A stretch of DNA of 36,223 nucleotides from Candidatus Paceibacter sp. (lineage in GTDB: Bacteria > Patescibacteriota > Patescibacteriia > SG8-24 > DYFX01), in the NCBI GenBank assembly GCA_020724945.1, contig DYFX01000003.1, positions 1 to 36,223 on the forward strand. The letters run 5' to 3'. A model generated the notes under the pieces. It was not told the DNA's origin. It saw nothing but the letters and a program-made list of their open reading frames with translations, and made no database searches. Within the stretch, counting starts at the first letter, position 1; the number at the start of each line of letters is the position of its first letter. Below are positions 115 through 32,725 of this stretch, one piece after another. Both the position numbers and the translations under genes were made by a program.

Positions 115-576
115 ATGGAACGCCACATCACCTCGAAACCTGGAGAGACCGCGAAGATCGCCGCCGCGCTGGCCAAGCGCATGAAGGGCGGCGAAGTCCT
201 GGCGCTCATCGGGAATCTCGGCGCCGGCAAGACGACCTTCGCGCAGGCGTTCGCCAGGACCCTCGGCGTCCGCCACCGCATCCAGAGCCCGACCTTCATC
301 TTCATGCATGAGCACCGTCTGGACCGGAAAAGCGACCCCGCGTATTTCGTGCACGCCGACGCCTACCGCGGCGGCGTCGCGGAACTGCGCTCCATCGGCC
401 TCGCGGAATACTTCGGCCGACCGGACGCCGTCGTCCTCGTCGAATGGGCCGACCGCGTGAAGTCGATGCTTCCCAAGAAGACGATCACGGTCCGCTTGAA
501 GCATCTCGGAGGCGACCGGCGCGAAGTGACGATCGCTGGGGCGCCGGCCGCGGCGAACCGGAGGCCGAGGGGTTGA
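115..576 (+). CDS. tsaE: tRNA threonylcarbamoyladenosine biosynthesis ATPase TsaE
   Basis: GNLGAGKTTF P-loop, SPTF, HADAYR and VEWAD motifs; adjacent to tsaD. Confidence 0.95.
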   Translation: MERHITSKPGETAKIAAALAKRMKGGEVLALIGNLGAGKTTFAQAFARTLGVRHRIQSPTFIFMHEHRLDRKSDPAYFVHADAYRGGVAELRSIGLAEYFGRPDAVVLVEWADRVKSMLPKKTITVRLKHLGGDRREVTIAGAPAAANRRPRG

Positions 577-642
577 ACGATCCGGCCGGAAGTGCTAGCT
601 TCGTAAGGAGTCCTTTTCACCGACCGTACGAAGGAGGAAACC
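573..642 (+). promoter_or_regulatory. sigma70 promoter, boxA-like element and SD of accessory gene
   Basis: TTGAAC(573, overlaps tsaE stop)-17-TAGCTT(596) with extended TG; GTCCTTTTCAC at 610; AGGAGG at 632. Confidence 0.6.
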
Positions 643-2172
643 ATGGGCAAGTACCTGCGGATCAAGAACCGCGGGGAGTGCCCGCGGCTCTATCTGACCC
701 TGCTCGGAGCGACGACCAAGGGCGACAGGATGGACGACCCGTCCCAGGGCGGATGGTTCGGCTCGGGGACGAAATTCGCCCCCGTGGCCGCGCTCAACCT
801 GGGCATCAGCGTCGCCGTCGCCTCGCGCGACGAGGGAGGCCGGTACTTCATCCAGTACCTCGCCGAGAAGCGCAAGCTGCCGGGCAAGACGATCAAGCAG
901 ATCGTCCTGCGCACCACCCTGCCGGATCGGAGCTTCGTCACGCGCGATACGCCGTTCACGCTCGACGCCTGCAAGAACTGGAAGGAGCCGATCGGCGACG
1001 ACGGCATGAAGGCCTTCCGCGTCCTGCGCGAGTACCTGCGCAACGCCGTCGATGCGGATCCGCAAGGCTACGCGATCGAGGAGTGCGACGAGCTCCAGTG
1101 GCCGCCGGAGGGATGGACCTATGTCTACCTCTCGGTGTCGGCGGAGATCCGCGCGATGCTGGCGGCCCCCGCCCGCTACTTCAAGTATGTCGCGCCGGAG
1201 CGTAATCCGCCGCCGCTCGCGTACTTCAAGAACGGCGCGGCCTACGCCCGCTCCGATCCGGAGCGCACGCGCCTCTTCTCGCTCGGCACGCTAGCCTTCT
1301 GCAGCGCGCACCCCCGGTATCGGGCGCGCTATGACTACAGCGTCGACGTGAAGACCGGTACCCAGGGACGCCCGCTCCTCGCCGAGGAACGGACCTTCTC
1401 GGACATGAGCCTGGTCTACTGCGAGGTCAAGAAGATGCTCGCGGCCTGGAAGGATGTCGCCGCGCTCACCGGACTGATCACGGCCATGATCGACGGCGAC
1501 GCCTCGTTCGAGGCGGAAGCGATGGGGTATCTGGACAACACGCCCAAGCTCCTCGCCGCCGCGCCGGAGTGGCTCGCCGCCTGGCGACGGGCCTACGGCG
1601 ACGACGCCGTCATCTCCTCGAACCCGTACGCGGACGAGCTCGCGCGCTACAGCTTCCGGAAGACCTCCGTGACCGTCCTGCAGCAGGGCGTCCGAAGCTT
1701 CCTGAAGGCCTGCGGCGTCCCCGAAGCCGCCGAGTGCATCCCGGGGATGGTCGTGGGACAGGAATACCGCCCCGTCGCCGACCTCGAGGATTGGGAACGC
1801 GAGCGCCTGGCGATCGCGTGCGCCATCATGCACGAGGAGTTCCCCGAATCGAAGGGCTTCGCGCTCTGCGTCTACGAGCCGATGACGGAACGGATGAAGC
1901 CGACCCTCGGCTTCGCCCGCTACGACACGGCCCAGCCCATCCTCTTCGTGCAGCGCGCCTGCATCCGCTCGTGGGACACCCTGATCGCGACGCTCGTCGT
2001 GCACGAGTGCCGCCACGCCCGCACCAAGGTCGACGACACCAAGCGCGACTTCATCGACCGGGCGGACCGCGACCTCGCGGACCTGCTCATCGAGAAGCAC
2101 GGCCTCGAGCACGAGCCCGAGGTGAGGCCGGAGGACATCAGCCTGCCCTCCGTCATCGTCGCGAAACCGTAA
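643..2172 (+). CDS. Permuted GHKL-type ATPase with C-terminal HEXXH zincin-like motif (hypothetical protein)
   Basis: LRIKNRGE, LGATTK and GWFGSGTK precede REYLRNAVDA; VHECRH near the C-terminus; strong SD. Confidence 0.6.
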   Translation: MGKYLRIKNRGECPRLYLTLLGATTKGDRMDDPSQGGWFGSGTKFAPVAALNLGISVAVASRDEGGRYFIQYLAEKRKLPGKTIKQIVLRTTLPDRSFVTRDTPFTLDACKNWKEPIGDDGMKAFRVLREYLRNAVDADPQGYAIEECDELQWPPEGWTYVYLSVSAEIRAMLAAPARYFKYVAPERNPPPLAYFKNGAAYARSDPERTRLFSLGTLAFCSAHPRYRARYDYSVDVKTGTQGRPLLAEERTFSDMSLVYCEVKKMLAAWKDVAALTGLITAMIDGDASFEAEAMGYLDNTPKLLAAAPEWLAAWRRAYGDDAVISSNPYADELARYSFRKTSVTVLQQGVRSFLKACGVPEAAECIPGMVVGQEYRPVADLEDWERERLAIACAIMHEEFPESKGFALCVYEPMTERMKPTLGFARYDTAQPILFVQRACIRSWDTLIATLVVHECRHARTKVDDTKRDFIDRADRDLADLLIEKHGLEHEPEVRPEDISLPSVIVAKP

Positions 2173-2204
2173 ACCCCGCACCTTCCGGTGCGGGGTCTTT
2201 TCGT
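2173..2204 (+). terminator. Intrinsic terminator between convergent genes
   Basis: ACCCCGCACC-TTCC-GGTGCGGGGT followed by CTTTTCGT. Confidence 0.8.
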
Positions 2205-2206
2205 CT

Positions 2207-3919: not shown

Positions 3920-3958
3920 CGTTGCGTGTCGTTCCCGCGAGCGCGGGGAACCCGTACC

Positions 3959-4978
3959 TTACTTCAGGAACCGGTCGAACCAGCGGGCGAGCTTGGACCT
4001 TCCGGCATGGCCGCGCTGATGGAGCTTGGTGAAGAGGTGCACCCAGACCGCGTACTGGAACGAGGCGAGGAGGCCGCCGATGAGCGCGAGGAAGAGCACG
4101 GCCGCCAGGCCGGCGAGCGCGAGGATCACGGCCACGCCCACGCCGCCTTCGATCAACGAGGCGCCGACGAGCAGCGGCAGGAGCACGATGCCGGCCACGA
4201 CGGTGGCCGCGCCGATGCCCAGCGCGGCCAGCAGGTTCACGGCGAAGAGCGCGAGCGCCGTCTCGATGCTGATGAGCCAGTACTTGCGGAAGAGCGCGAC
4301 GGCGGACTCGATGGCGGCGATGACCGGCAGGCGCTGCAGCGTGACATAGCAGGCGGCGTAGATCGTCACGAAGCCGATGATGAGGGTGAGGGGGATGAGG
4401 AGGACGAAGCCGGCCAGGTAGGAGAACGAGCTCCAGAAATTGGCGTCGGCGAGATACAGCACCGTGAGCGACAGCATCAGGTAGAAGAAGGCCAGCGTCG
4501 CCAGGCGCGCGAGGAGGTTCAGGACGAACAAGGGCCAGGCGACCTCGTTGCCGGCCGCGAAGAGCGAACCGAAGGCGGTCTTGCGCCCCCGTTCGGCGTC
4601 GCGGGCTCCGGCGATGAGCCCGCCTTGCGCGGACACCACCACCCAGACGGCCGCGGCCGCGATCCCGATGATCGTCAGCGCGGTCAGCAGGAAGATGACG
4701 ATGCCCTGCGCGCCCGCGGAGGCGAGCGCCTCGCCGATGCCGCCGGCGTCGAGCGCTTGCCAGAGGCCGAAGAAGCCTCCGAAGTCCTCGTCGAGGCCCA
4801 GGCGCCCCGTGCCTTGGACGAGGATCTCGTAGACCCCGCCGTTGCCGAGGAACGAGACGAAGAAGCCCAGAAGCCAGAGCGCCTTGTTCGCGCGCACCGT
4901 CTTCCAGGCGTCCGCCAGGATGTGGCGGTAGAACGCGCCGGTCGGTTTGGTCATATTTCCTCCGCGTGAGTCAAACAT
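3959..4978 (-). CDS. Multi-pass membrane protein of unknown function
   Basis: About 7-8 hydrophobic segments. Start is either 4978 (9 nt after TATACT) or 4954 (after GGAGG). Confidence 0.75.
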   Translation of the reverse strand: MFDSRGGNMTKPTGAFYRHILADAWKTVRANKALWLLGFFVSFLGNGGVYEILVQGTGRLGLDEDFGGFFGLWQALDAGGIGEALASAGAQGIVIFLLTALTIIGIAAAAVWVVVSAQGGLIAGARDAERGRKTAFGSLFAAGNEVAWPLFVLNLLARLATLAFFYLMLSLTVLYLADANFWSSFSYLAGFVLLIPLTLIIGFVTIYAACYVTLQRLPVIAAIESAVALFRKYWLISIETALALFAVNLLAALGIGAATVVAGIVLLPLLVGASLIEGGVGVAVILALAGLAAVLFLALIGGLLASFQYAVWVHLFTKLHQRGHAGRSKLARWFDRFLK

Positions 4979-5019
4979 AGTGCCCTAAGTATACAGGATT
5001 CCCGAGCGCCTGCCCACGC

Positions 5020-5086
5020 TTGACCGCGGCGCGGCGCGCTGGTAGGGTGAACCGTCGTCACTCGCGACGGCAGGAAGGCGTCAGGC
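5020..5086 (+). promoter_or_regulatory. sigma70 promoter and leader of accessory gene
   Basis: TTGACC(5020)-17-TAGGGT(5043) with extended TG; short leader hairpin; AGGAAGG at 5072. Confidence 0.6.
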
Positions 5087-5932
5087 ATGGAGGAAACGCT
5101 GTTCGGGACCCGACTTTCCGTACCGGAAGATCCGGATCCGGCCGCGCCGGAGCTGATCGACGCGATGCATACCGCCTACCGCATCGGCCGCGACTTCCTG
5201 TGGGAGCGGCCGGACATCCCTCCGGCGCCGCCGGACGCCATCGGACGGCGGATCGAGAAGCTCTCCGGAGGATCGTCGTCGTCCTTCCACGCGGCGCTGG
5301 CCGCGTTCCATCTCGGCGCCGCGCGGCCCTCGGAGGGCTCGCGCCGGAAGTCGACGCCGCGCGTCGCGCACCTCGCCTCCGCCCAACAGGCGCTCACCCG
5401 TTCTTTCCTCGCGATGCACCGCGACGCGCTGGTCGAAGTGTTCAGCAAGAGCAAGCGCGTCGGGTTCGCCGATGTCGTCGCCTGGCGCACCACCCTCTCC
5501 GGCGCCATGGCCGTCGCCCGCGTCGCCCGCGTCCTGCATGACGCCGGAGCCCGGCTCTGGCTGCCGACGATCCGGATGGACATGCGCGACAAGATCGACC
5601 TCATCGCGGCCTTCGGCCCGGCGACGGGCGTCTGCCTCCAGGTCAAGAACGACCACGCCGCCGCCGCGACCGTCTGCACGCCCTGCGCGCCGGACGACCT
5701 CGCTACGCCCGCGGACTGTCCGCCGGAGTTCATGCGCGGCGTCCGCGACCATGCGCGGCGCGTCGGCGGCGCGTGGCACGGCCTCTTCGTCCGCGTCGGC
5801 AGCCGCGGCATCCCGTTCCAGGACCTGAAGCGGTGCCAGACCATCCGCCGCAGCCTGCTCGCCGCCGTGGCGGGACTGGTTCCCGAGGCGATCATGACCT
5901 CGGCGACCGAAACCTCGCCGCCCGCACCATAG
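5087..5932 (+). CDS. Hypothetical protein with PD-(D/E)xK-like nuclease motif
   Basis: DMRDKIDL-x9-CLQVK; own promoter and terminator. Confidence 0.55.
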   Translation: MEETLFGTRLSVPEDPDPAAPELIDAMHTAYRIGRDFLWERPDIPPAPPDAIGRRIEKLSGGSSSSFHAALAAFHLGAARPSEGSRRKSTPRVAHLASAQQALTRSFLAMHRDALVEVFSKSKRVGFADVVAWRTTLSGAMAVARVARVLHDAGARLWLPTIRMDMRDKIDLIAAFGPATGVCLQVKNDHAAAATVCTPCAPDDLATPADCPPEFMRGVRDHARRVGGAWHGLFVRVGSRGIPFQDLKRCQTIRRSLLAAVAGLVPEAIMTSATETSPPAP

Positions 5933-5963
5933 ACCGCGCCGCTCCCGGCCGGTCTTTTTCGTT
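5931..5963 (+). terminator. Intrinsic terminator
   Basis: AGACCG..GCCG-CTCC-CGGC-CGGTCT followed by TTTTCGT; starts within the TAG stop. Confidence 0.7.
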
Positions 5964-5973: not shown

Positions 5974-6031
5974 TTGACCTCGTCTCCATCCGCGGACTAG
6001 CGTGGAAGCAGGACCTTGAAAGGAGGCCGCC
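5974..6031 (+). promoter_or_regulatory. sigma70 promoter, boxA-like element and SD
   Basis: TTGACC(5974)-18-TAGCGT(5998); GGACCTTGAAA at 6011; AGGAGG at 6021. Confidence 0.6.
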
Positions 6032-6679
6032 ATGATCGATTGCGTCGATGCCATCGCCGTCCCGCAGGCGGTCACGCCCTTCGTCCGCCCGAGCGCCTCC
6101 ATCTTCACCGTCGAAGGCGGGAAGGTCCGGATGCATGTCGTCCGCGGACGCGACGAGGCGCTGCGCGTCATCGCCGAAAAGCGCGCCCAGACCCGCGACG
6201 AACGCTATCGGCTGTGCCTCGACATCGTCGAGGCGTCCATGCTGCCGGAGCGCGCCGACGCCCCGACCGTCTCCATCGCGCCATGCGCCGCCGTCCTGCA
6301 GATGCTGGAAGCGACCTACGCGGTGATGCCGGAACTCGATCGGGTCGAGGATCTCGTCTATGCCGACGCGCCCGGCCTCGACGCCTTCCGTCTGCCGCGG
6401 TCGCCGGAAATCGATTCCGGGTATGCCGTCGTCCGCACGCGGACGGGCCCTCTGCTCGAGGTGTTCCATACGCGCGCGCACGCCTTCGCGTTCGCGGAGC
6501 GCCACGACGCGTTGTTCAGCGAGGACGACCGGCGTCTCATCGACGAGGCGTTCGGCGCGAGTCCGCTCGACGACCGATCCGTGCGCGCCTCCGAGGCCTT
6601 CGGAGGCTTCGCCGCCGCCGTCATCGGCGCCCACGACCGCCTCTTCCGCCTCCTCCGCGCCGCGGCCATCCGCCGCTGA
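6032..6679 (+). CDS. Hypothetical protein with apparent internal duplication
   Basis: Strong SD and own terminator; two similar ~100-aa halves. Confidence 0.7.
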   Translation: MIDCVDAIAVPQAVTPFVRPSASIFTVEGGKVRMHVVRGRDEALRVIAEKRAQTRDERYRLCLDIVEASMLPERADAPTVSIAPCAAVLQMLEATYAVMPELDRVEDLVYADAPGLDAFRLPRSPEIDSGYAVVRTRTGPLLEVFHTRAHAFAFAERHDALFSEDDRRLIDEAFGASPLDDRSVRASEAFGGFAAAVIGAHDRLFRLLRAAAIRR

Positions 6680-9934: not shown

Positions 9935-10324
9935 ATGCGCTCTGCCATCACGACGCTTGCGCTTTGCCTGGCCGCCACCGCCTGCCGAACGGACACGGAG
10001 CCGAAACTCCAGGGTCCGGACCCGGATCCGATACTTCATACGGAGACGCTGTCGAACGATCTCTTCATCGTCGTCGCGACCGCCCCCTTCGGTCACCAGG
10101 ACCGGCTCGCGCTGGCCGTCGCCGAAGACGGCAGCGGCGCGTGCGCGACTTTCGTCGTGCCTTCCGACATGGCCCTGAAAAAGGGCGATGTCTTCAAGGT
10201 GCACCGCCTCTGTTACCGCGCGCGGGAGGCGCGCCGTGGAAGCGAAGGCGTGACCGCCCTCGACGCCTGCACGGATGTCGTCATCCCGTATCGGCTCCCG
10301 ACGCCGGAAGCGGAGCCGAAGTGA
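9935..10324 (+). CDS. Putative lipoprotein, hypothetical
   Basis: MRSAITTLALCLAATA-C lipobox-like signal; start chosen from the SD. Confidence 0.65.
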   Translation: MRSAITTLALCLAATACRTDTEPKLQGPDPDPILHTETLSNDLFIVVATAPFGHQDRLALAVAEDGSGACATFVVPSDMALKKGDVFKVHRLCYRAREARRGSEGVTALDACTDVVIPYRLPTPEAEPK

Positions 10325-10384: not shown

Positions 10385-10675
10385 GTGAGTTCCACCGACC
10401 CGTCCGTCCATTGCGACTGCCGCGCCGTCAGCGTCCGTCGCGCCATCGTCGTCTCCATCGTCGTCGGCCTCGCCGCCGCCGTCGCCCGGAGCGCCGTCTT
10501 CCGCGACGCGCCGGCCGCCCAAGCCGCCTGCGGGACCGTCGCCGGCCTCGCCGTCGCCGCGTACGGCATCGCGCGCCTGTACGACCGCGACCGCCGCCTG
10601 CCCGCGTGGGTCTACGCCGCCGTCGTCCTCGCCGGCACGACGCTCGCGACGCTCTGGACCGTCCGCCTCTTCTGA
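10385..10675 (+). CDS. Small membrane protein (about 3 TM), hypothetical
   Basis: AAGGAG SD, GTG start, three hydrophobic stretches, terminator at the stop. Confidence 0.6.
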   Translation: MSSTDPSVHCDCRAVSVRRAIVVSIVVGLAAAVARSAVFRDAPAAQAACGTVAGLAVAAYGIARLYDRDRRLPAWVYAAVVLAGTTLATLWTVRLF

Positions 10676-10700
10676 CCCTCCTCGCGAGGGTCTTTTTCGT
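10674..10700 (+). terminator. Intrinsic terminator
   Basis: GACCCTC-CTCGC-GAGGGTC followed by TTTTTCGT; begins within TGA. Confidence 0.8.
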
Positions 10701-15141: not shown

Positions 15142-15157
15142 AAGAAGGGAGGTCCGC

Positions 15158-15478
15158 ATGAGCCGAAAGAAGCCGTCGACCGCCCTCATGGCGATCGACA
15201 GGATCCTGCCTGAAGCCGCCGCCCGCGCGATGTACGATTGGCGCCGCGCCTTCGGCACGCCGCCGACGCAGATGCGTCTCGGCGTGGACGCGCGCGGGAA
15301 CCTCGCGATCGATCTCGCCGACCCGAAGGCCGTCCGGCCGGGGGAGTCCTACCTCGTGGTCGAGTCGCTCACGAGCCGCATCGTCGGCGTGCTCCGCGAC
15401 GGCGCGCTCGACGCCGAGCCGCAGCACCTTCCGCCGTCGAGCGCCGCCTGCACGCTCTTCCGCGCCGCGAAAGCCTAG
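15158..15478 (+). CDS. Hypothetical protein
   Basis: GGAGGT SD before ATG 15158; terminator starts within the stop. Confidence 0.65.
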   Translation: MSRKKPSTALMAIDRILPEAAARAMYDWRRAFGTPPTQMRLGVDARGNLAIDLADPKAVRPGESYLVVESLTSRIVGVLRDGALDAEPQHLPPSSAACTLFRAAKA

Positions 15479-15544
15479 GCCCTCCCTTGCGCGGAGGGCC
15501 TTTTTTCGTCTAAGGTGCGGGCAGTTCCTTGGAAGGAGGCCGTC
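15477..15544 (+). terminator. Terminator overlapping the next promoter, boxA-like element and SD
   Basis: AGGCCCTCC-CTTGCGC-GGAGGGCCT followed by TTTTTCGT; TTGCGC(15487)-18-TAAGGT(15511); GTTCCTTGGAA at 15524; AGGAGG. Confidence 0.7.
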
Positions 15545-16645: not shown

Positions 16646-16672
16646 TCCCGGCCCTCGCGCCGGGATTTTTTT
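16645..16672 (+). terminator. Intrinsic terminator
   Basis: ATCCCGGC-CCTCGC-GCCGGGAT followed by a T-run; starts within TGA. Confidence 0.85.
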
Positions 16673-19432: not shown

Positions 19433-19488
19433 GACGCGGAGGCGGCAGGCGGGTAGGGTAGAGCCGCTCTTTCCACCTGGAGGTCCGC
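19431..19488 (+). promoter_or_regulatory. sigma70 promoter, boxA-like element and SD
   Basis: TTGACG(19431)-17-TAGGGT(19454); GCTCTTTCCAC at 19466; GGAGGT at 19479. Confidence 0.7.
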
Positions 19489-20697: not shown

Positions 20698-20760
20698 CCT
20701 CCCCGGTCGCGGGCTTTTCTTTTGGAACGAAAAACACGCCCGTTCAGGGCATGTCATTCA

Positions 20761-20836
20761 TGGTGCGTCGGCTGGGGGTCGAACCCAGGACCTTAGGCTT
20801 AAGAGGCCTCTGCTCTACCGGCTGAGCTACCGACGC
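20761..20836 (-). tRNA. tRNA-Lys (anticodon CUU)
   Basis: Acceptor GCGTCGG/CCGACGC, TAGCTCAG D-arm, loop CT-CTT-AA, GTTCGA T-loop, encoded CCA. Confidence 0.95.
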
Positions 20837-20891
20837 ACGGACGATTTCCACAAACGGATACTATACGGCCCCGCGAAAAGAATCAAGACCC

Positions 20892-20966
20892 TGGTGCGGG
20901 CGGAGGGAATCGAACCCCCATAGCCGGTTCCGAAGACCGGTGCTCTATCCGTTGAGCTACGCCCGC
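20892..20966 (-). tRNA. tRNA-Arg (anticodon UCG)
   Basis: Acceptor GCGGGCG/CGCCCGC, anticodon arm CCGGT-CT-TCG-GA-ACCGG, GTTCGA, encoded CCA. Confidence 0.95.
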
Positions 20967-21012: not shown

Positions 21013-21040
21013 ACGAAAAAAACCGCCGGTCAGGCGGTTT
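21013..21040 (-). terminator. gmk terminator
   Basis: AAACCGCC-TGACC-GGCGGTTT followed by TTTTCGT; stop codon lies in the loop. Confidence 0.75.
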
Positions 21041-21605
21041 CGGAATACGGACGGAGGATGCGGAGGACATCTTGGATGCAGTCTTCCAGGTATCCGTGCC
21101 GGTTCGTGACGACATGATCGCACTCGACGGCGGCGGCGATCTCGCCGGGGGCGGCGGCCAGGCGCTTCGCGATGTCCTCCTCCTTCATCGGCGGGACGCG
21201 GGCGCGGAGGCGCGGCTCGAGGTCCCCGAAGTCGCCGGGCCTGATGAAGATCGCCACGGCTTCGGGCATCAGCTTCTTGATGATGCGGGCGCCCTGGATC
21301 TCGACGATCTTGATGGCGAGGGGAGAGGCTTCCAGCGCGCGTCGGAGGCCGGAACGCGAGGTCCCGTACCAGTGCTGCGAGTACTGTGCGTGCTCGAAGA
21401 AGTCGCCTTCCGCGGCCTTCCGCTGGAACTCCTCGCAGGAGAGGAAGTGCATGTCGACGCCGGGCGTCTCCTTCGTGCGCGGGGCGCGGCAGGTGGTGGA
21501 GAGCACATGGATGGCGTCGGGACGCCGCGCGAGCACCTCCGCGAGGACGGAGCTCTTGCCGACCGCGGTCGGCCCGATGATCAGGACGAACGTTCCGATC
21601 GGCAT
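21030..21605 (-). CDS. gmk: Guanylate kinase
   Basis: IIGPTAVGKS P-loop, STTCRAPR, E..GVDMHF, F.EHA.Y..HWYGT. Confidence 0.88.
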   Translation of the reverse strand: MPIGTFVLIIGPTAVGKSSVLAEVLARRPDAIHVLSTTCRAPRTKETPGVDMHFLSCEEFQRKAAEGDFFEHAQYSQHWYGTSRSGLRRALEASPLAIKIVEIQGARIIKKLMPEAVAIFIRPGDFGDLEPRLRARVPPMKEEDIAKRLAAAPGEIAAAVECDHVVTNRHGYLEDCIQDVLRILRPYSETA

Positions 21606-21642
21606 GGCGGCCTCCTTTCAATGAGCCGCCAGGAGCTTACCA
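21606..21642 (-). promoter_or_regulatory. Extended -10, boxA-like element and SD of gmk
   Basis: TGG-TAAGCT; GCTCATTGAAA (21626-21616); AGGAGG. Confidence 0.6.
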
Positions 21643-23882: not shown

Positions 23883-24410
23883 ATGAGACGGAAACCGAAG
23901 ACGCCCGAAGGGATGATCGTCGCCGCCACGACGCGCGAGGAACCGCCGCCGCGGCCCGATCCGACCGACACGCTCGCATGCGTCGGGGAGTCGGGCTGGA
24001 AGGTGAAGTTCGCCTGCGGTCACAAGGCGCCGAGGCGGTTCAAGATCGATTTCTACGGCGAGGTGCGCGAACCCGCCAAGGAGGTCCTCAAGCGGCGCGA
24101 GCGCTGCGGCCCGTGCGCCGCGGCATGGCTGAAGGACATCTCCATCCGCTGCGCGCTCTGCGGCTGCGCCATCCTCCCGGGCGAAGGCGTCGCGGCGTAT
24201 GCCGACGATCCTTCCTACAAGGAGGCGTGGAAGACGCGCATCGGCTCGGACAAGGACGGCGTCCTCGGATGCATGGGGTGGGACTGCTGCCCCTCCGGCG
24301 GCTTCTTCGCCGGACACTGGACGCTGGACGGGTTCCGCCCGGCCTACGCCCACGGCTCGGCCATGTCCGAGGCCATCGCCACCGGCAAGCCCGTCATCGG
24401 CAACGCCTGA
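23883..24410 (+). CDS. Cys-rich putative zinc-binding hypothetical protein
   Basis: CGH, CGPC, CALC and CMGWDCC motifs; AGGAGG SD; own terminator. Confidence 0.75.
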   Translation: MRRKPKTPEGMIVAATTREEPPPRPDPTDTLACVGESGWKVKFACGHKAPRRFKIDFYGEVREPAKEVLKRRERCGPCAAAWLKDISIRCALCGCAILPGEGVAAYADDPSYKEAWKTRIGSDKDGVLGCMGWDCCPSGGFFAGHWTLDGFRPAYAHGSAMSEAIATGKPVIGNA

Positions 24411-24440
24411 CCGCCCCGCACCACGGGCGGTCTTTTTCGT
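24409..24440 (+). terminator. Intrinsic terminator
   Basis: GACCGCCC-8 nt-GGGCGGTC followed by TTTTTCGT; starts within TGA. Confidence 0.8.
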
Positions 24441-25898: not shown

Positions 25899-26177
25899 AT
25901 GCGCCGATTGCTGCTCTGGATGTTCACCAGCACGCCGGAAACCGGCTTCTCCGAGCACCTGAACAAGATCGCCGCGCGGCTGATCCTGCTCATGACTCCG
26001 ATCCTGCTGACGCTCTACTGCGGAAGCGTGGGCTTCGGCTGGGGCGTCTGCGCCGGGATGCTCCTCTTCGCCGGCGCGGCCTTCATCAGCACGACCTGGT
26101 ACCGATGGAACGTGATCGAGGCTCCCCGGCTCGACGAGCTGGCCCGCGCCCGCGCGCTCCGCGGTCTCCGTCGCTGA
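25899..26177 (+). CDS. Small membrane protein (2 TM), hypothetical
   Basis: AGGAGG SD; two hydrophobic helices. Confidence 0.65.
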   Translation: MRRLLLWMFTSTPETGFSEHLNKIAARLILLMTPILLTLYCGSVGFGWGVCAGMLLFAGAAFISTTWYRWNVIEAPRLDELARARALRGLRR

Positions 26178-26505: not shown

Positions 26506-27306
26506 TTACTCGATGATCTTTTGAATCTGGACGATCTTCACGGCCTTGCCGTCTTCTCCGACGGTCACGGCGACCGCGTTCAGGTCGACGGGGCCGGCCT
26601 CGGGGATCTCGAAGGCCTTCGCCTCGCCTTCGACGAACCGGCTGATCGGCCCTTCCGGCTCGACGCCGAGGATGGAGTGGCGCGCGCCGGTCATGCCGAT
26701 GTCGGTCAGGTAGGCGGTGCCCTTCGGCAGGATGCGGGCGTCGGCGGTCGGCACATGGGTGTGCGTGCCGGTCACCGAGGAGACGCGTCCGTCGAAGTGG
26801 ATGCCGAAGGCGATGCGCTCGGAGGTCGCCTCGCCGTGGAGATCCACGATGATGGCGTCGAGCTTCTCGCCCGCATGCCGCTTCAGGACGGATTCCATGG
26901 CGACGAAGGGGCTGCCGTACGGCTCGCCCATGAAGACCTGGCAGATCAAGTTTACCACGAGGACCCGTTTTTCGCCAAGTGTTAGCGTTTTTTCGCCGTC
27001 GCCGGCCGTCCCTTCGGGGAAGTTGGCGGGGCGGATGAGGAGATCCTTGAGCTCGGGGTCGGCCCAGACATCGTGCGGACCCTTCTGGTTCGAGAAGATA
27101 TGGTTGCCGGAGGTGAAGAAGTCCACCCCTGCGGCGTGCAGTTCGGCGATGATGGGGCGCGTCACGCCCTTGCCGTGCGCGAGGTTCTCGGCGTTCACGA
27201 TCGTCAGGTCGGGATTGAACTCCTCCTTCAAACGAGGAAGCGCTCGTTTGAGCGCTTCGCGTCCGATCTTGCCGACGACATCTCCGAAGACGAGGAATGT
27301 CATCAT
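26506..27306 (-). CDS. ymdB: YmdB-family metallophosphoesterase
   Basis: GDVVG, NAEN, GNH, RPAN, DLHGEATSE, GTHTH; downstream of rny. Confidence 0.92.
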   Translation of the reverse strand: MMTFLVFGDVVGKIGREALKRALPRLKEEFNPDLTIVNAENLAHGKGVTRPIIAELHAAGVDFFTSGNHIFSNQKGPHDVWADPELKDLLIRPANFPEGTAGDGEKTLTLGEKRVLVVNLICQVFMGEPYGSPFVAMESVLKRHAGEKLDAIIVDLHGEATSERIAFGIHFDGRVSSVTGTHTHVPTADARILPKGTAYLTDIGMTGARHSILGVEPEGPISRFVEGEAKAFEIPEAGPVDLNAVAVTVGEDGKAVKIVQIQKIIE

Positions 27307-27312
27307 ACGGGT

Positions 27313-28842
27313 CTAGCGCGCGTATTCGATCGCGCGCATCTCGCGGATGACGTTGATCTTGATCTCGCCGGGGTACTGGAGCTCCTGCTCGCACTTCTTG
27401 GCGATGTCCTTGGCGAGCTGCCAGGCGCCGAGGTCGTCGATGCGCTGGGGGGAGACGAAGACGCGGATCTCGCGGCCGGCCTGGATGGCGTAGGCGCGGT
27501 CGACGGCTTCGAAGGAGGTGGCGACCTTCTCGAGGTCCTCGAGGCGCCGGACATAGTTCTCGAGCGTGTCCTTGCGGGCGCCGGGGCGCGATCCGGAGAT
27601 GGCGTCGGCGGCCTTGCAGAGGTAGCCCTCGATGTTGCGCGGCCGGTCCTCGTGGTGCGAGAGCGAGTGGTAGGCGATCTCCTCGGGGAAGCCGAACTTC
27701 TTCATGATGTTGTAGCCGATCTCCGGGTGGGCGCCGGGGACATCATGGTCGACGGCCTTGCCGACATCGTGGAAGAGCCCGCCCTTGAGCAGGACCGCGG
27801 CGTCGGCGCCGACTTCCTTGGCGAGGAAGTTGCCGATCAGCGCGACCTCGATGGAGTGGCGCAGGACATTCTGGCCGTAGGAGGTGCGGTACTTCAGGCG
27901 GCCGAGGATGGAGATGAGCTTGGGGTCGACCGAGCCCAGCGGGATGCCGCACTCGATCATGGCGTCCTCGCCGGCCTTCTTGATGTCGAGCGCGAGCGTG
28001 CGCTTGGCCTCCTCGATGGCCTCCTCGATCTTGGTCGGCTGGATGCGGCCGTCCTTGATGAGGCTCTCGAGCGCGAGGCGGGCGACCTGGCGGCGGATGG
28101 GGGAGAAGCCGGAGACCGTGATGGCGTTCGGCGTGTCGTCGACGATGATCTCGGTGCCGGTCAGCTGCTCGAGCGACTTGATGTTGCGGCCCTCCTTGCC
28201 GATGATGCGGCCCTTCATGTCGTCGGAGGGGAGCTGGACCTGGGTCGTGGTCGTCTCGGCGCAGTGCGAGGAGGCGACGCGGGAGATGACGGCGGAGAGG
28301 ATGTTGCGGGCCTTCGTCTCGTACTCGTCGGTGCCGGCGCGCTCGATCTTGCGGATGCGCGAGAGGATCTCGTCCTGGGCCTCGTCCTCGATGGCCTTGA
28401 AGAGCTGCTCCTTGGCGACTTCGCGGGGGAGTTCGGCGACCTTCTCGAGCTTCTCGCGCATGTCCGCCTTGAGCCGCTCGATCTCGGCCTTGGCGGCCTC
28501 GATCTCCTTGGCATGCTCGTCGCTCTTCCGGGTCTTCTCCTGGAGCTCGAGAAGCTGCTTGTCGAACATCGATTCGCGCTTCTCGAGGCGCTGCTGGACG
28601 GCGTTCAGCTCCTTGCGGCGCTCGGCCTCGTCGCGCTTGGCCTCGTCGAGCATCTGGACGGACTTCTTCTTGGCCTGGAGCTCGATCTCCTGGGCCTTGG
28701 CCTTGGCGTCGTTCACGGTCGCCTCGGCCTTGGCTTCGGCGGACGCGATCTTGTCGGCGGTGACTTTCTTTTGGATGTAATAGCCGGCGCCCAGACCGAC
28801 CGCCAAGGCGGCCAGGGCGAGGAGCAACAACGGGACGGACAT
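27313..28842 (-). CDS. rny: Ribonuclease Y
   Basis: N-terminal TM, coiled coil, KH domain (KGRIIGKEGRNI), HD domain (HDVGK), AIQAGRE. Confidence 0.97.
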   Translation of the reverse strand: MSVPLLLLALAALAVGLGAGYYIQKKVTADKIASAEAKAEATVNDAKAKAQEIELQAKKKSVQMLDEAKRDEAERRKELNAVQQRLEKRESMFDKQLLELQEKTRKSDEHAKEIEAAKAEIERLKADMREKLEKVAELPREVAKEQLFKAIEDEAQDEILSRIRKIERAGTDEYETKARNILSAVISRVASSHCAETTTTQVQLPSDDMKGRIIGKEGRNIKSLEQLTGTEIIVDDTPNAITVSGFSPIRRQVARLALESLIKDGRIQPTKIEEAIEEAKRTLALDIKKAGEDAMIECGIPLGSVDPKLISILGRLKYRTSYGQNVLRHSIEVALIGNFLAKEVGADAAVLLKGGLFHDVGKAVDHDVPGAHPEIGYNIMKKFGFPEEIAYHSLSHHEDRPRNIEGYLCKAADAISGSRPGARKDTLENYVRRLEDLEKVATSFEAVDRAYAIQAGREIRVFVSPQRIDDLGAWQLAKDIAKKCEQELQYPGEIKINVIREMRAIEYAR

Positions 28843-28848
28843 AGGGTG

Positions 28849-29030: not shown

Positions 29031-29081
29031 GGTTCGACCATATCACGGGGAGGTGCCTCCGGCAAGGTGTATACTGCCCCC

Positions 29082-30590
29082 ATGATGAAACGCCCGTATT
29101 CGCTGGTCTTCGCGCTTTCCGCCGCCTTTTTCGCGTGGATCCACTTCGTTCCGGGCTTCGGCGACCCCGACGCCTACTACCATCTGCGGATGACGCGCCT
29201 GACGATGGAGTCCGGGCCCGTCGCGGCCTTCCCGTGGCTGCCGCAGACCACGCTCGCCGACGCGTTCGCCGACCATCACTTCCTCTATCACATCGCGCTC
29301 GCGCCCTTCCTCGCCGCGTTCGGGGATTTCCACGGAGCGAAGATCGCCACGGTCGTCTTCGCGGCGCTCGCGGTCGTCGCCGTCGCATACCTCCTGAAGG
29401 GCTATGGCGTGCGGCGGCCGCATCTTTGGGCGCCGCTCCTGTTCTTCGCTCCGGGATTCGTCTTCCGGCTGCTGCTCACCAAGGCCACCGCGCTCGCGCT
29501 CGCCGCGCTCTGCCTCTTCCTCGTCGCGCTCCGGCGCCGGCATCGCGGCGCGGCGTTCGCGATCGCCTTCGCGTATGTCTGGCTGCATGGCGGGTGGCCG
29601 CTCCTTCTCGTGGCCGCTGCGATCGACGCGCTCGTGCGCCGCTCGGCGCGGATGTTCGTCGCGACCGCGCTCGGATCGGCGGCCGGACTCGTCCTGAACC
29701 CGTTCTTTCCGGCGAACCTCCTCTTCTACGGCGAGCAGATCCTGCAGATCGCCGTGCTCGGGCGCCCCGATCCCGCCGTGCTCGTCGGCGACGAGTGGTA
29801 TCCGCGCGAGTTCGCGACGATCTTCATCGGGAACATCGGCGCGTTCCTGCCGATGCTCGCCGCCGCGGCCGCCGCGGCCGCCGCCGTGCTGACCGGCGCG
29901 CGCCCGCGCCCCGTGCGCGTCGACCTGTCGCGGCGCTTCGACATGCTTTTCGCCGGATCGTTCGCCGCGATCCTGCTGCTCATGACGCTCCGCCAGGCGC
30001 GGCATCAGGAGTACCTCGTGCCGATGGCCCTCCTCGCCGGCGCGCTCGTCGCGGAGACGGCGCTCGCCGCCATCGACCTGCGCGCGCTCGCCGCGCGGGC
30101 GAAGGCGCGGTTCGGCCGCGCGGCCGTCCCGGCGACGGCGGCGCTCGTCGTGGCGTGCGCGGCCGCCGCCGTCTGGCTGCTCTGGATCCCGCGCCGTTCC
30201 TACGAGGATCGTCCGCCGGCGTCGCGGTACGCCGATGCCGGCGCTTGGGTGCGCGCACATGTGCCGGCGGGGGAGACGATCTTCCACGCGCGCTGGGACG
30301 ATTTCCCCCAGCTCTGGTACCGCTCTCCGGAGCATCGCTACATCGCCGGCCTCGACGCGCTCTTCTCCTACCGCAAGGATCCGGCGAAGTACTGGCTCTG
30401 GCGCGACATCGGCGAAGGCCGCCGCCGCGAAGGGCTGGCCGAGCTGATCGTCGAGGAGTTCGGCGCGCGGCATGTCTTCCTGCGCATGGGCCCCGACCCG
30501 CTCCGTTCGCTCATCAAAAAAGACCCGTCGTTCGAACGGGTCTACGCGGACATCGAGGCGGAGGTCTGGAGGATCAGAGACGCACGATGA
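29082..30590 (+). CDS. GT-C fold membrane glycosyltransferase, STT3/AglB-like
   Basis: More than 10 TM segments; DPDAYYHLR after TM1; DEW in a loop; ARWDDFP in the C-terminal soluble domain; start ATG 6 nt after TATACT. Confidence 0.65.
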   Translation: MMKRPYSLVFALSAAFFAWIHFVPGFGDPDAYYHLRMTRLTMESGPVAAFPWLPQTTLADAFADHHFLYHIALAPFLAAFGDFHGAKIATVVFAALAVVAVAYLLKGYGVRRPHLWAPLLFFAPGFVFRLLLTKATALALAALCLFLVALRRRHRGAAFAIAFAYVWLHGGWPLLLVAAAIDALVRRSARMFVATALGSAAGLVLNPFFPANLLFYGEQILQIAVLGRPDPAVLVGDEWYPREFATIFIGNIGAFLPMLAAAAAAAAAVLTGARPRPVRVDLSRRFDMLFAGSFAAILLLMTLRQARHQEYLVPMALLAGALVAETALAAIDLRALAARAKARFGRAAVPATAALVVACAAAAVWLLWIPRRSYEDRPPASRYADAGAWVRAHVPAGETIFHARWDDFPQLWYRSPEHRYIAGLDALFSYRKDPAKYWLWRDIGEGRRREGLAELIVEEFGARHVFLRMGPDPLRSLIKKDPSFERVYADIEAEVWRIRDAR

Positions 30591-30960
30591 GCGTCACGAC
30601 GCCGGAGCGGCGCGCCTCGTCGTGCCAGCGCCAGGCGCGCTCGCAGTCGAGGCCGCGCATGGCCAGGTAGCCGGCGCAACAACCCCAGACGGCGGCCGCC
30701 ACATCGGCGGAAAGGTCGTCGTCCTTGGTGTCGACGAGATCGATCGTCGCGCGGTCGGCGCCGTCGAGGACCGCGTCGCGCAGGCCATCGAACACGCGAT
30801 CGAGGTAGGGGACGGCGAAACCGTTCCCCGCCTTCTCGAACTCCGCGGGCGCGTCGTCGCGCAGGGGCTTGAGGTGAAGCTCGACTTCCTTGGCGAGCTT
30901 GGCGCGGACCGATCGGCAGCCGTTGCGGATGCCCGTGAGCGTCGTGCGGATCTGCGGCAT
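30574..30960 (-). CDS. Hypothetical protein
   Basis: Own promoter TTGACG(31033)-17-TACGCT with extended TG, and AAGGAG SD. Confidence 0.65.
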   Translation of the reverse strand: MPQIRTTLTGIRNGCRSVRAKLAKEVELHLKPLRDDAPAEFEKAGNGFAVPYLDRVFDGLRDAVLDGADRATIDLVDTKDDDLSADVAAAVWGCCAGYLAMRGLDCERAWRWHDEARRSGVVTLIVRL

Positions 30961-31033
30961 GAAGGATCTCCTTGTCGTCCGGGTGATCCGGAAAGCGACG
31001 CAGGAGCGTAGCAGGGATCCGCCGCCGCGTCAA

Positions 31034-31699: not shown

Positions 31700-31702
31700 A
31701 GG

Positions 31703-31771
31703 TTGACAATCTGGGATTTCGTGCTAGGTTGAGCTTAGTCCGCCCCGCCCTTTCAGACAACAGGAGGCCCC
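31703..31771 (+). promoter_or_regulatory. sigma70 promoter, boxA-like element and SD
   Basis: TTGACA-16-TAGGTT with extended TG; GCCCTTTCAGA at 31747; AGGAGG at 31762. Confidence 0.6.
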
Positions 31772-32662
31772 ATGAGTTCCGAGGAGAACAAGAAGCCTCC
31801 CGGCAACGGGGGGCCGCGCGTGCTCGGCGACGCGCCGGACGACGCTTGCGAGATCGTGATCGACTGCGAACCGCCCGCGCTCATGCTCACCTCGAAGGCC
31901 AAGCAGGCCCACGAGGAGCTGCGCGACATCATGCGCGAGCGGAAGGACCGCTGGTTCACCGCCTTCGCGCGGAATCTCGCCCGCAACGGCAAGAAGCTCC
32001 CGCGCATCATCGTGCATGTCGTGACCGGCGGCGTCGTGACCATCGCGGTCACGGCCGCGACCGGCGACCCCGTGACCGGCCTGGCCGCCGGCACGGCGGT
32101 CGGCGTCACCGGTCCGCCGGCGCTCTCGACCACGCGCCTGCGCCGCAGCCGCCTCGCCGAGCACCGCCGTTCCTACCCCGATGTCCCGGAGTTCCACGAT
32201 CTCTGGGCGGTCACCGCCTACGAGTTTTGCCTCATCGTCCGCGGCTACGAGCTGCGACAGCAGGCCATCCACCGCCTCCGCAAGCTCGCGCGCCAGTTCC
32301 GGCATGACGAGCGGCGGGCCGCCGCGGCGCTCCGCACGGCCGACGGGTTCGCGAACTTGCTGTGCGGCTATTACGCCGACCTGGTCGAGATCGATCGCGT
32401 GCTCCTCGAGTATCAGGACGATTCCATCGAACGGTACGCCGACGAGGAAGGCCAGGCCGCCATCCGGCAGATCCAGCCCTTGAAGGAAGGACAGTACGAC
32501 TGGCTCATCCTCGAGCCGGAAGTCATCGTCCCCGGCAAGGAGCAGGAGCTGCTCGAGCGCGACCTCCAGGAGATCGCGAGCTACCGCGACATGGCCGATG
32601 CCATCGACCCGTACGAGGCCATGCGCCGCGAACAGGAAGAGCACGAAGGTTCCGAAGACTGA
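31772..32662 (+). CDS. Hypothetical protein with a Gly/Ala/Thr-rich hydrophobic hairpin and helical C-terminus
   Basis: Strong SD, own promoter and terminator. Confidence 0.7.
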   Translation: MSSEENKKPPGNGGPRVLGDAPDDACEIVIDCEPPALMLTSKAKQAHEELRDIMRERKDRWFTAFARNLARNGKKLPRIIVHVVTGGVVTIAVTAATGDPVTGLAAGTAVGVTGPPALSTTRLRRSRLAEHRRSYPDVPEFHDLWAVTAYEFCLIVRGYELRQQAIHRLRKLARQFRHDERRAAAALRTADGFANLLCGYYADLVEIDRVLLEYQDDSIERYADEEGQAAIRQIQPLKEGQYDWLILEPEVIVPGKEQELLERDLQEIASYRDMADAIDPYEAMRREQEEHEGSED

Positions 32663-32663
32663 C

Positions 32664-32725
32664 CCCCGCCCGCGGCGCCGCGGCGGGGCTTTTTCATTGA
32701 CAGATATGCGGAAGTCCCGTATCCT
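32664..32725 (+). promoter_or_regulatory. Terminator followed by the infB promoter (near-leaderless)
   Basis: CCCCGCC..GGCGGGG followed by CTTTTT; TTGACA(32697)-17-TATCCT(32720), 9 nt before the ATG. Confidence 0.75.

Follow-up and report, generated by a model that had tools for sequence, protein, structure and literature searches.

Results

The locus and its shared leaders

The stretch of DNA analysed here (the window) comprises bases 1–36,223 of a contig labelled C58 in G000, the genome of a groundwater member of the Patescibacteria (candidate phyla radiation, CPR) with 1.07 Mb in 91 contigs, 66% G+C and about 95% completeness. An original prediction had singled out 13 of its genes as non-core genes dispersed among housekeeping genes, each tending to carry its own promoter, a short leader with a strong Shine–Dalgarno (SD) sequence and a terminator at the stop, and had attributed this architecture either to a regulon or to a gene-capture route. 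We find that the observation is real and that its interpretation is partly supported: the window probably samples a genome-wide, lineage-conserved and vertically inherited split of expression signals into two classes, which extends through this patescibacterial genus and order. The nearest database matches of the prolyl-tRNA synthetase (ProRS) encoded in the window are from Patescibacteria group bacteria, at 87%, 77%, 69% and 68% identity.

The shared leaders are found where they had been placed. The 19-mer TTGAAAGGAGGCCGCCATG is exact at 6016–6034 (+), where it leads into an SD-led orphan gene of 215 aa (6032–6679, +) with TTGAC 58 nt upstream and a terminator 5 nt past the stop, and again at 21603–21621 (−), where it leads into the SD-led guanylate kinase gene gmk (21030–21605, −; Pfam Guanylate_kin, 8.5e-28). 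It recurs with 17 of 19 positions at 15529–15547 (+), in front of an SD-led DAGK-like lipid kinase gene (15545–16645, +; 366 aa; Pfam DAGK_cat, 3.5e-6; terminator 16644–16667). These three matches compare with 0.01 expected in the window, and none of 100 shuffles reached three. The 13-mer GGAGGTCCGCATG is exact at 15148–15160 and 19479–19491 (expectation 0.13; two copies reached in 0/100 shuffles). Its first copy leads into an SD-led orphan of 106 aa (15158–15478, +; terminator 15477–15501), the start of which lies 16 nt downstream of the stop of a DUF1189 gene, and its second into an SD-led gene for an acidic lipoprotein of 402 aa with a lipobox (19489–20697, +; terminator 20691–20713), for which TTGAC is found 58 nt upstream.

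All 13 listed starts were chosen by a codon-model gene caller, which predicts 37 genes in the window and 1162 in the genome as a whole, at a coverage of 89%. The remaining elements of the predicted architecture hold to different degrees. GGAGG stands 4–5 nt before the start in nine of the 13 genes, while the genes starting at 9935, 10385 and 30960 (−) have a weak core of 4–5 nt and gene 5087 has a distant AGGAAGG alone, 9 nt upstream. A TTGAC element lies 35–100 nt upstream of 8/13 listed genes vs 3/24 other window genes, in line with the own promoters claimed for most of them, and a hairpin with a T-run occurs within 70 nt of the stop in 7/13 vs 6/24, to which a separate terminator scan adds the terminators of 10385 and 19489. 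The non-core status is borne out by the lack of a Pfam family at E ≤ 0.01 in 11 of the 13 genes, the lipid kinase gene 15545 and gmk being the exceptions, and no PHROG family was found in any of the ten listed genes scanned. That 11 of the 13 lie on the + strand is correct but has no special meaning, 27 of all 37 genes being on this strand. As to the predicted cargo, two kinase-type proteins (by Pfam), two lipobox proteins (9935 and 19489) and predicted membrane segments in 10385, 25899 and 31772 agree with it, but the nuclease- and peptidase-type proteins find no support in any search. The window holds no integrase, as had been stated, and the sole PF00589 match of the genome lies on another contig, C40. 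A scan of the window with Rfam and ARAGORN returned two tRNAs alone, tRNA-Lys and tRNA-Arg (20761–20966), and the Rfam scan revealed no riboswitch or known leader family in the window that would account for the shared leaders.

Two classes of start signal

Starts were divided into those with a strong SD (GGAGG at −17 to −4), those with a weak SD (a 4–5-nt core) and the remainder, which have no SD. Among the 1092 classifiable genes of G000 the three classes hold 186, 146 and 760 genes, respectively, and among the 1142 genes of G003, a complete single-contig congener of 1,167,441 bp, they hold 188, 139 and 815. The strong signals are well spaced, GGAGG being 4, 5 or 6 nt from the start in 48, 65 and 29 cases (142/186); the counts show a sharp maximum at these distances and amount to 1–5 at any other. 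The 3′ end of the 16S rRNA of G000, CACCTCCTTTCT, contains the canonical anti-SD CCUCC (GGATCACCTCCTTTCT).

The housekeeping genes of the window belong to the SD-less class, which includes those for TsaE, PilB, FtsH, S1, GyrA, L32, NusB, RNase III, TypA, ProRS, HU, YmdB, RNase Y, TruB, IF2, thioredoxin, TrxB and others, and a Pfam family is present in 21 of the 23 SD-less window genes. Every ribosomal-protein gene inspected is without an SD, rpsU excepted. Some of these genes, namely those for L32 and a PilT-like ATPase, proS and infB, have a TAnnnT box just 6–9 nt 5′ of the ATG, while typA and rpsA have long leaders that are free of an SD. Across the genome, 301 SD-less genes follow an upstream gap of 60 nt or more, and in 91 of these a TAnnnT box ends 6–10 nt 5′ of the ATG, vs 2 of 109 strong-SD genes; the background at other positions is ~3–4 per position, and G003 has a matching peak at 6–10 nt. 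A box so close to the predicted starts is the pattern expected of leaderless mRNAs, and these genes look leaderless.

The two classes also differ in the nucleotide at −1, which is U in 57–60% and A in 4% of SD-less genes, operon-internal genes included, and is preferentially C (59%) in SD-led genes. In a sister-family genome, G026, of which 400 kb were sampled, U occupies this position in 55% of SD-less genes. A37 of the initiator tRNA offers a pairing partner for a U at −1. No SD signal is visible in the upstream profile of the 287 SD-less genes whose upstream gap is below 15 nt. The predicted fold of the region from −20 to +23 is more stable in SD-led than in SD-less genes (−8.8 vs −7.0 kcal/mol; p = 9e-10), which fits an SD that compensates for structure and core mRNAs that avoid structure or are leaderless. 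Lipobox proteins are encoded by 11% of SD-led vs 1.4% of SD-less genes. Membrane or secreted proteins were considered as the key to SD use and rejected, as N-terminal hydrophobic segments are equally frequent in both classes (0.27–0.32) and the lipobox alone is enriched.

SD use follows gene conservation

The division by start signal is mirrored by gene conservation. A reciprocal best hit in G003 exists for 70/180 strong-SD genes (39%) vs 543/696 SD-less genes (78%; Fisher p = 1e-22), and the median identity to G003 is 45% vs 72% (Mann–Whitney p = 9e-18). The first version of the caller rewarded starts preceded by an SD; in a rerun made without this bonus, a reciprocal match in G003 was found for 50/119 strong-SD vs 514/631 SD-less genes (p = 1.4e-17), and the contrast persists among high-scoring genes of at least 100 aa. 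Seen from the side of conservation, SD-led genes make up 56% of those that lack a reciprocal best hit, a share that declines steadily to 8% at identities of 85% or more. In the 400 kb of the sister-family genome, 7/21 strong-SD vs 164/233 SD-less genes have a match in the genus (p = 0.001). Non-conserved genes are thus strongly enriched in leader and SD signals, and the idea of a genome-wide class with one expression architecture, as predicted from the window, holds up. Between orthologues of G000 and G003 the class is largely retained, from none to none in 540/578 cases and from strong to strong or weak in 57/71.

A random Pfam sample taken outside the window agrees with this picture, a family being found for 10/30 strong-SD vs 17/20 SD-less genes. 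The SD-less members of the sample include S7, L5, S11, L4, trigger factor and PolA, and the SD-led members include an ImpB/UmuC-type polymerase (G000:C5:6073–7275). A Toprim–DnaB primase–helicase gene (G000:C9:4891–6813), which encodes a second primase besides the SD-less DnaG, is another SD-led member of the sample. Both are of types typically found in mobile elements or phages.

Promoters and terminators

TTGAC occurs between −80 and −40 in 77/182 strong-SD (42%) vs 48/698 SD-less genes (7%) of G000, and in 96/188 (51%) vs 53/815 (7%) in G003. In G000, profiles aligned on TTGAC (129 SD-led and 50 SD-less genes) have a common layout, TTGACg followed after ~17 nt by G.TA...T, the sole difference being a more G/C-rich middle of the −10 box in SD-led genes. 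Both classes therefore appear, from these profiles, to share one promoter type rather than to be separated by a second sigma-factor motif, and promoter type gives no support to the regulon of the original prediction, TTGAC...TAnnnT being identical in the two. The median distance from TTGAC to ATG in SD-led genes is 60 nt, suggesting leaders of ~25 nt, and no −10 box lies within 14 nt of an SD-led start. A strict sigma-70 scan of the window gave 8 promoters, which with few exceptions belong to core genes or tRNAs; the −10 boxes of the orphans (TAGGGT, TAGCGT and similar) fall below its threshold, so it is neutral on the TTGAC count.

A terminator at the stop is found in 73/182 strong-SD (40%) vs 173/701 SD-less genes (25%) of G000, and in 47% vs 28% in G003. 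T-runs are often followed by CGT, and TTTTCGT occurs 191 times in G000. This tail was considered as a common cassette end and rejected, since it is found in both classes of G000 (26% of SD-led vs 16% of SD-less terminators) and is rare in G003 (just 2–6%). A comparison of terminators revealed no common sequence past the hairpin and T-run at the ends of SD-led genes, nor did the flanks of SD-led units share any sequence beyond the generic signals.

As in the window, SD-led genes tend to be dispersed, 65% of those in G003 lying within runs of one or two. Some clustering exists besides this dispersal, with 7 runs of at least five SD-led genes in G003 vs 1.5 expected. A denser SD-led run in G000, at C86:9102–16556, has no G003 orthologues.

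How far the leaders are alike

Part of the similarity between leaders follows from the signals they contain. Among the 186 strong-SD leaders, 27 identical 10-nt pairs were counted vs ~16 expected from column shuffles within SD-spacing groups, so that the GGAGGTCCGC pair is unremarkable within this class. Complementarity explains a further part: the 9 nt of GAAAGGAGG are complementary to the 16S tail, which accounts for this portion of the leader motif, not for the remainder. The identical 16-nt leader TTGAAAGGAGGCCGCC is of another order. It has three copies, before gene 6032, gmk and a gene at C86:13206 in the denser run mentioned above, vs 0.007 pairs expected, and none of 300 shuffles reached this count; near-copies with a preceding CC stand before four more genes. 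Paralogy was rejected as the source of the shared leaders, as the seven genes with the TTGAAAGGAGG leader encode unrelated proteins and paralogues are no more frequent among SD-led genes (12%) than among SD-less ones (20%). The 19-mer, allowing at most one mismatch, was found in 3/37 genomes of the order, in orthologous places where checked. G003 has a recurrent leader of its own, CC-TTGGAGG-TTCC-ATG, before unrelated slot genes (667737, 664271, 661887 and 645650; loci L121–L122), which is a sister form of the CC-TTGAAAGGAGGC leader of G000.

Inheritance and turnover of the window genes

Our window is collinear over its whole length with G003, with the loci L002 and L003 and with G012, the closest species sampled, of which a 40-kb stretch was compared. 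Nine of the 13 listed genes have a G012 counterpart in the corresponding slot, at 43–80% identity (core genes with a Pfam family, 86–98%; all SD-led window genes, 43–81%), 5/13 are reciprocal best hits in G003, and 10/13 are present in at least one congener. The four genes that are lacking in the G012 slots are 9935, 15158, 25899 and 30574, the last of which is found in G003. Empty sites exist, as illustrated by the proS–HU interval, which is reduced to 43 bp in L003, by 30574, which is missing in a strain and in G012, and by gmk, which is present in few congeners, but relatives carry most of the listed genes in place. Set beside the genome-wide enrichment of leader and SD signals, this makes the outcome for the original prediction a mixed one.

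For the nine scorable listed genes, comparison with G012 gave a dS of 0.44–0.68 and a dN/dS of 0.28–0.93, and the ten SD-led window genes with a G012 match gave 0.41–0.68 and 0.28–0.93; the corresponding values of the 21 SD-less window genes with a Pfam family are 0.07–0.48 and 0.07–0.25. As the dS of SD-led genes is of the same order as that of core genes, they seem to have diverged in place and not to have been replaced by foreign alleles. Their composition is also native: the G+C content at third codon positions (GC3) is 0.905 in SD-led vs 0.895 in SD-less genes of G000 and 0.819 vs 0.780 in G003, and the codon score per codon is 0.47 vs 0.505. At strain level, comparison covered the long X6 contigs that are ~99% identical to the window (records 9, 12 and 14); depth and most junctions obtained at a likeness of 80% stem from other organisms and were set aside. 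In gene 15545, 23 of the 26 listed single-nucleotide polymorphisms (SNPs) between strains fall on codon position 3, a distribution that points to purifying selection.

The regions in front of these genes are not less constrained than those of the core. The median identity to G012 over the 40 upstream nucleotides is 27/40 for SD-led genes (n = 8) and 17/40 for SD-less genes (n = 13); these identities are ungapped and hence lower bounds, the 14/40 of gmk being due solely to a G012 spacer that is one base shorter. Promoters and leaders of SD-led genes thus appear to be conserved at least as well as those of core genes. Gene 6032 is the clearest example, with a protein identity of 58% to G012 and an upstream identity of 39/40 that includes an identical run of 36 nt.

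Turnover is seen in several slots. The rpsA–MBL slot holds two SD-led ORFs in G000, one in G012 and five in G003. The interval between proS and HU contains in the window an SD-led orphan of 92 aa with two predicted transmembrane (TM) segments (25899–26177, +), for which no homologue was found. Different SD-led ORFs, of 142 aa in L002 and of 105 aa in G003, occupy this interval there, and in G012 it measures 1231 bp. A strain-level indel affects the unit 30573–31032 (−), which includes an orphan of 128 aa (30574–30960, −) with its own TTGACG...TACGCT promoter: an X6 contig of 10,775 nt (~99% identical) joins window position 30572 straight to 31033. The slot is without the gene in G012, and a 41% orthologue sits in the G003 slot, from which the gene is judged ancestral. 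The missing segment runs from stop codon to stop codon and has the 5-bp direct repeat ATCAG at each edge; the strain seems to have lost the ancestral gene by a simple deletion at a microhomology. The empty and variable sites in general look like ordinary small deletions and turnover.

The gmk gene (58% identical in G012, at the same slot and with a near-identical leader) was detected through PF00625 in 2/12 other genomes of the genus, strongly in G012 and below the cut-off in G001, vs 21/24 of the sister family. Its database homologues range from 50% to 99% identity and speak neither for nor against transfer. The gene adjoins the two tRNA genes at 20761–20966.

Other genes of the window

The first listed gene encodes an SD-led orphan of 509 aa (643–2172, +; leader GAAGGAGGAAACC-ATG; terminator 2173–2196) without a Pfam or PHROG family, and has a positional orthologue of 48% identity in G012 and of 35% in G003, where it also measures 509 aa (dN/dS 0.79). 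The nearest ESM Atlas clusters of this protein (score 0.99) are 93–98% viral (Uroviricota), and more distant clusters contain MPN635_N and HATPase_c_3; both are leads only. An SD-led gene absent from the earlier list encodes a membrane protein of 331 aa with seven predicted TM segments (3959–4954, −; leader GGAGGAAAT-ATG), has no Pfam family, and is 81% identical in G012 and 69% in G003, with 36/40 identical upstream positions in G012. The orphan of 281 aa at 5087–5932 (+), which has the AGGAAGG mentioned above and TTGAC 67 nt upstream, lacks a Pfam family; it is 53% identical in G012 at the same slot and has no match in G003 (dN/dS 0.59).

A small lipobox protein of 129 aa (9935–10324, +) is preceded by a weak SD and by TTGAC 60 nt upstream; no homologue was found in G012, G003, L002 or L003, and the corresponding gap in G012 measures 204 bp. 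It is followed by a small protein of 96 aa with two TM segments (10385–10675, +; weak SD, GTG start, terminator 10674–10692), which is 51% identical in G012 (dN/dS 0.93). For gene 15158 no homologue was found in G012, G003 or L002–L008. The lipid kinase 15545 is 80% identical in G012 and 33% in G003. The lipoprotein gene 19489 (dN/dS 0.78) occurs in 6/30 relatives at 30–51% identity, in the same place where checked, and its protein matches lipoprotein-like Atlas clusters at 0.91, which again is a lead only.

Between typA and proS lies an SD-led orphan of 175 aa (23883–24410, +; terminator 24409–24432), found at the same slot in G012 (43%) and G003 (28%), with a dN/dS of 0.86. Further downstream, an X6 contig (record 12, 5057–5171) has ~100 extra bases between ymdB and rny, at window positions 27300–27314. 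A protein of 507 aa with eight TM segments (29067–30590, +) has no Pfam family and a weak or distant SD; its identities are 71% in G012, 54% in G003, 66% in L002 and 52% in L003. The last listed gene, an SD-led orphan of 296 aa between truB and infB (31772–32662, +), with TTGACA 69 nt upstream and a terminator 6 nt past the stop, always occupies the same slot, at 76% identity in G012, 27% in L002, 22% in L003 and 23% in G003 (reverse search).

The rpsU gene and its protein

The one ribosomal-protein gene that departs from the SD-less rule does so throughout the order. In 29 of 30 loci (L237/L238 and L239–L267), rpsU, encoding bS21, is preceded by an extended SD-like element of the type AGAAAGGA[A/G]GGTGA, of which 6–10 nt are complementary to the 16S tail, and usually has a GTG start; in G000 the gene lies at C74:5248–5502. 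The S6–ssb–S18 operon and the genes for S7, S11, L4, L5, L32 and S1 are SD-less in the same genome. The bS21 of the order has a conserved C-terminal extension, ALRRE[YF]L..RRE[YF]L.K.G...EEDF, with aromatic and acidic residues; it includes a conserved Y/F near positions 56 and 63, which is suggestive only. The 9 PDB matches of a bS21 query comprise no Flavobacterium chain.

Flavobacteriia sequester their anti-SD by means of bS21, bS18 and bS6, and the SD of rpsU serves for the autoregulation of this gene (PMC7797042). The signature of sequestration comprises Tyr54 of bS21, Phe50, Asn56 and Lys37 of bS18, and Trp100 and Arg103 in the C-terminal helix of bS6 (PMC7797042), and the constellation of rpsU and bS21 autoregulation in Flavobacteriia is also described in PMC9976891 and PMC13000453.

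Discussion

Proposed model

Based on the above data, we propose that the window is one sample of two inherited expression styles. Core genes, such as those for ribosomal proteins, IF2, TypA, ProRS, GyrA, FtsH and others, start without an SD; about a quarter to a third of those preceded by a gap look leaderless, and the others have SD-less leaders or are operon-internal. Lineage-specific genes sit, mostly singly or paired, in slots between the core transcription units. The typical unit would consist of a sigma-70-like TTGAC(g) −35 element, a G/C-rich TAnnnT −10 box and a 5′ leader of ~25 nt, in which GGAGG, often extended to GAAAGGAGG, the complement of the 16S tail CACCUCCUUUCU, stands 4–6 nt before the ATG, with frequently an intrinsic terminator at the stop. 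On these G+C-rich and structured start regions, pairing of SD and anti-SD would recruit the 30S subunit, while core mRNAs, being leaderless or of low structure, would be initiated independently of an SD. The units are probably transmitted vertically, their proteins diverging several-fold faster than the core and the units occasionally being lost or replaced through small deletions. What we observe directly are the two sequence classes and how they relate to conservation, synteny, substitution rates and composition; transcription starts, leader lengths, leaderless status, the functional use of the SD and the cause of the split are read from sequence only.

Alternative origins of the SD-led units

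Several explanations compete with vertical inheritance of a two-class system. Recent horizontal acquisition would mean that DNA from SD-using bacteria or phages brought its own promoter, SD and terminator. It would account for the mobile- or phage-type families among SD-led genes (DnaB–Toprim primase–helicase, ImpB/UmuC and a PD-(D/E)XK nuclease), for the similarity of protein 643 to phage-dominated Atlas clusters, for the patchy distribution of gmk in the genus and its position beside two tRNA genes, and for the 110/180 strong-SD genes without a reciprocal best hit in G003. However, the GC3 of SD-led genes equals or exceeds the genome's own in a species of 66% and in one of 60% G+C, ten of the 13 listed genes have positional orthologues in congeners with a dS of their neighbours' order, the SD class is retained between orthologues, no PHROG family was found in ten window orphans, and paralogues are not enriched (12% vs 20%). 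We consider this origin improbable. A dedicated capture system, integron-like or other, that inserts ORFs with standard flanks between housekeeping genes is considerably less plausible still. The contents of slots do differ by species (2/1/5 ORFs at rpsA–MBL in G000/G012/G003), the unit 30573–31032 is cleanly missing as a whole from a strain of ~99% identity, and an identical 16-nt leader stands on three unrelated genes. Yet the window has no recombinase and the whole genome a single PF00589 gene, the units are dispersed and form no array, and their flanks share only generic −35/−10 elements, SD and T-runs, TTTTCGT being found in both classes and not in G003; moreover, the strain indel shows 5-bp microhomology and concerns an ancestral gene with a G003 orthologue, and the exact 19-mer is confined to 3/37 genomes of the order, in orthologous places where checked. 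The capture branch of the original prediction, with its standard flanks, is therefore not supported: dS is unsaturated, GC3 is native, the flanks share generic signals only and no integrase is present in the window. Taken together, ten of the 13 listed genes appear to be inherited, fast-evolving genes with occasional small losses, and collinearity, divergence in place, native GC3, a lone and distant recombinase, the absence of a common terminator sequence and the lack of paralogue enrichment lead us to reject the view that the units stem mainly from a dedicated capture route or from recent horizontal transfer. The least probable explanation, which we regard as barely credible, is an artefact of wrong start calls or of spurious ORFs that happen to follow GGAGG. 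The SD bonus of the first caller and the many SD-led ORFs without a homologue could suggest it, but the outcome was the same without the bonus and for high-scoring genes of at least 100 aa. The SD-led ORFs have a GC3 of 0.90, length-conserved positional orthologues and mostly a dN/dS below 1, and the strain SNPs listed in gene 15545 fall on third codon positions in 23 of 26 cases. Pfam alignments of core proteins begin at residues 1–8, which indicates that the starts are right, and a position-specific U at −1 and −10 boxes would not be expected at wrong starts.

A different kind of explanation concerns the function of the split. The SD-led genes might form a translational regulon gated by ribosome composition, in which bS21 with bS18 and bS6 would restrict access to the anti-SD as in Bacteroidia, and be co-translated with rpsU on bS21-poor ribosomes; we hold this to be unlikely, if somewhat less so than horizontal acquisition. 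Its trigger could, at similarly long odds, be host contact or a change of growth state, for example. The anti-SD of the order would then act as a switch, on which the accessory set and rpsU depend in its free form and of which the core is independent, a scheme that we regard as doubtful. By analogy with Flavobacteriia, the occupancy of bS21 might conceivably tune the host-interaction or accessory proteome as one translational regulon, although we would not expect it to. The set so controlled, improbable as the control itself is, would make up roughly between a sixth and a quarter of the genes and be enriched in lipoproteins. The conserved promoters and leaders before drifting proteins, including the sub-family CC-TTGAAAGGAGGC, might, in this rather unlikely case, be operators. 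The extended SD-like element of rpsU in 29/30 loci beside otherwise SD-less ribosomal-protein genes, a constellation identical to that of bS21 autoregulation in Flavobacteriia (PMC7797042), the conserved C-terminal extension of bS21 in the order and the conservation of SD-led promoters and leaders while the proteins drift all argue for such gating. Against it, 17% of genes have a strong and well-spaced SD, from which the anti-SD would be routinely available, far from the near absence of SDs in Bacteroidia, and rpsU carries an SD in SD-using bacteria as well.

Several points weigh against our preferred reading of a vertically inherited two-class system. The split is not absolute, 153 of the 345 genes without a reciprocal best hit being SD-less and 11 strong-SD genes sharing 70% identity or more with the orthologue in G003. 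Nor is rapid evolution a property of SD-led genes alone, as the SD-less genes 5087 and 11465 (no Pfam family) and the DUF1189 gene 14371 have a dN/dS of 0.32–0.59 and a dS of 0.56–0.68, and the dS obtained with NG86 is unreliable at a GC3 of ~0.9. Gene calls and SD classes come from our own codon-model caller and not from an established one, with noisy weak-SD calls. Three genomes served to score conservation, namely one complete congener, a second congener over 40 kb and a sister-family member over 400 kb; all genomes are metagenome-assembled, and the relatives compared, being few and related, are not independent samples. The TTGAAAGGAGGCCGCC triple is beyond chance and is not accounted for by the two-class system, which is also silent on the reason why accessory genes use an SD.

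Significance

The observation itself is solid, the gene-capture interpretation is not supported, and the functional reason for the split is what we infer; the finding provides no evidence for a novel mechanism of DNA mobility. Most CPR bacteria have yet to be cultured, roughly half of the genes they carry are unknown, and gene finders and start predictions applied to them assume a single start model. The two-class architecture offers a way, from sequence only, to separate the conserved backbone from a variable gene set, and would allow better start calling. The variable gene set is likely involved in interactions at the cell surface and with the host. The split raises the question why volatile genes have textbook promoters, SDs and terminators while essential genes are SD-independent or leaderless. 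The parallel with Bacteroidia, in which rpsU alone has an extended SD, suggests that control by anti-SD availability may exist outside that phylum.

Relation to known systems

Mixed start architectures, in which leaderless genes coexist with SD or weak signals, are known (PMC6028130, PMC3160421, PMC5397173), leaderless genes are commoner in information-processing COG classes (Zheng 2011, PMC3160421), and about half of Parcubacteria are reported to lack the anti-SD motif (Tsurumaki 2022, PMC9297842). In the parts of the literature consulted, supplementary files lying outside the search, we found no description of a lineage with an SD-less core in which SD use is tied to accessory or fast-evolving genes. 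The closest counterparts are groups C and X of GeneMarkS-2 (Lomsadze 2018, PMC6028130), which resemble our genomes in a Pribnow-like box near many starts, a second set of genes with an SD-type ribosome-binding site (RBS) and an intact 16S anti-SD. In group C, however, operon-internal and leadered genes are expected to have an RBS, whereas here 287 closely spaced genes as well as typA and rpsA lack an SD; and unlike groups C and X as described, the SD is here concentrated in the variable, fast-evolving fraction. The SD-blind ribosomes of Bacteroidia and Flavobacteriia (Jha 2021, PMC7797042; McNutt 2023, PMC9976891) provide a second parallel, since most genes are SD-less there despite a canonical anti-SD and rpsU stands out with an extended SD-like element, which in our case is order-wide. 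They differ in that about one gene in six here has a strong, well-spaced SD, vs virtually none there, and in the upstream signal, which is U at −1 here and upstream adenines in Bacteroidia (PMC13000457).

Integron cassettes are likewise small, mostly single-ORF units of unrelated functions, some of them strain-variable, but our units have no IntI, no attC-like common site and no array, carry their own promoters and occupy fixed syntenic slots. With the orphan genes of reduced-genome backbones they share short proteins of unknown function, a high dN/dS, lipobox enrichment and a position that is better conserved than the sequence. Unlike ordinary orphan genes, they form a class marked by distinct, conserved transcription and translation signals that have no counterpart in the backbone.

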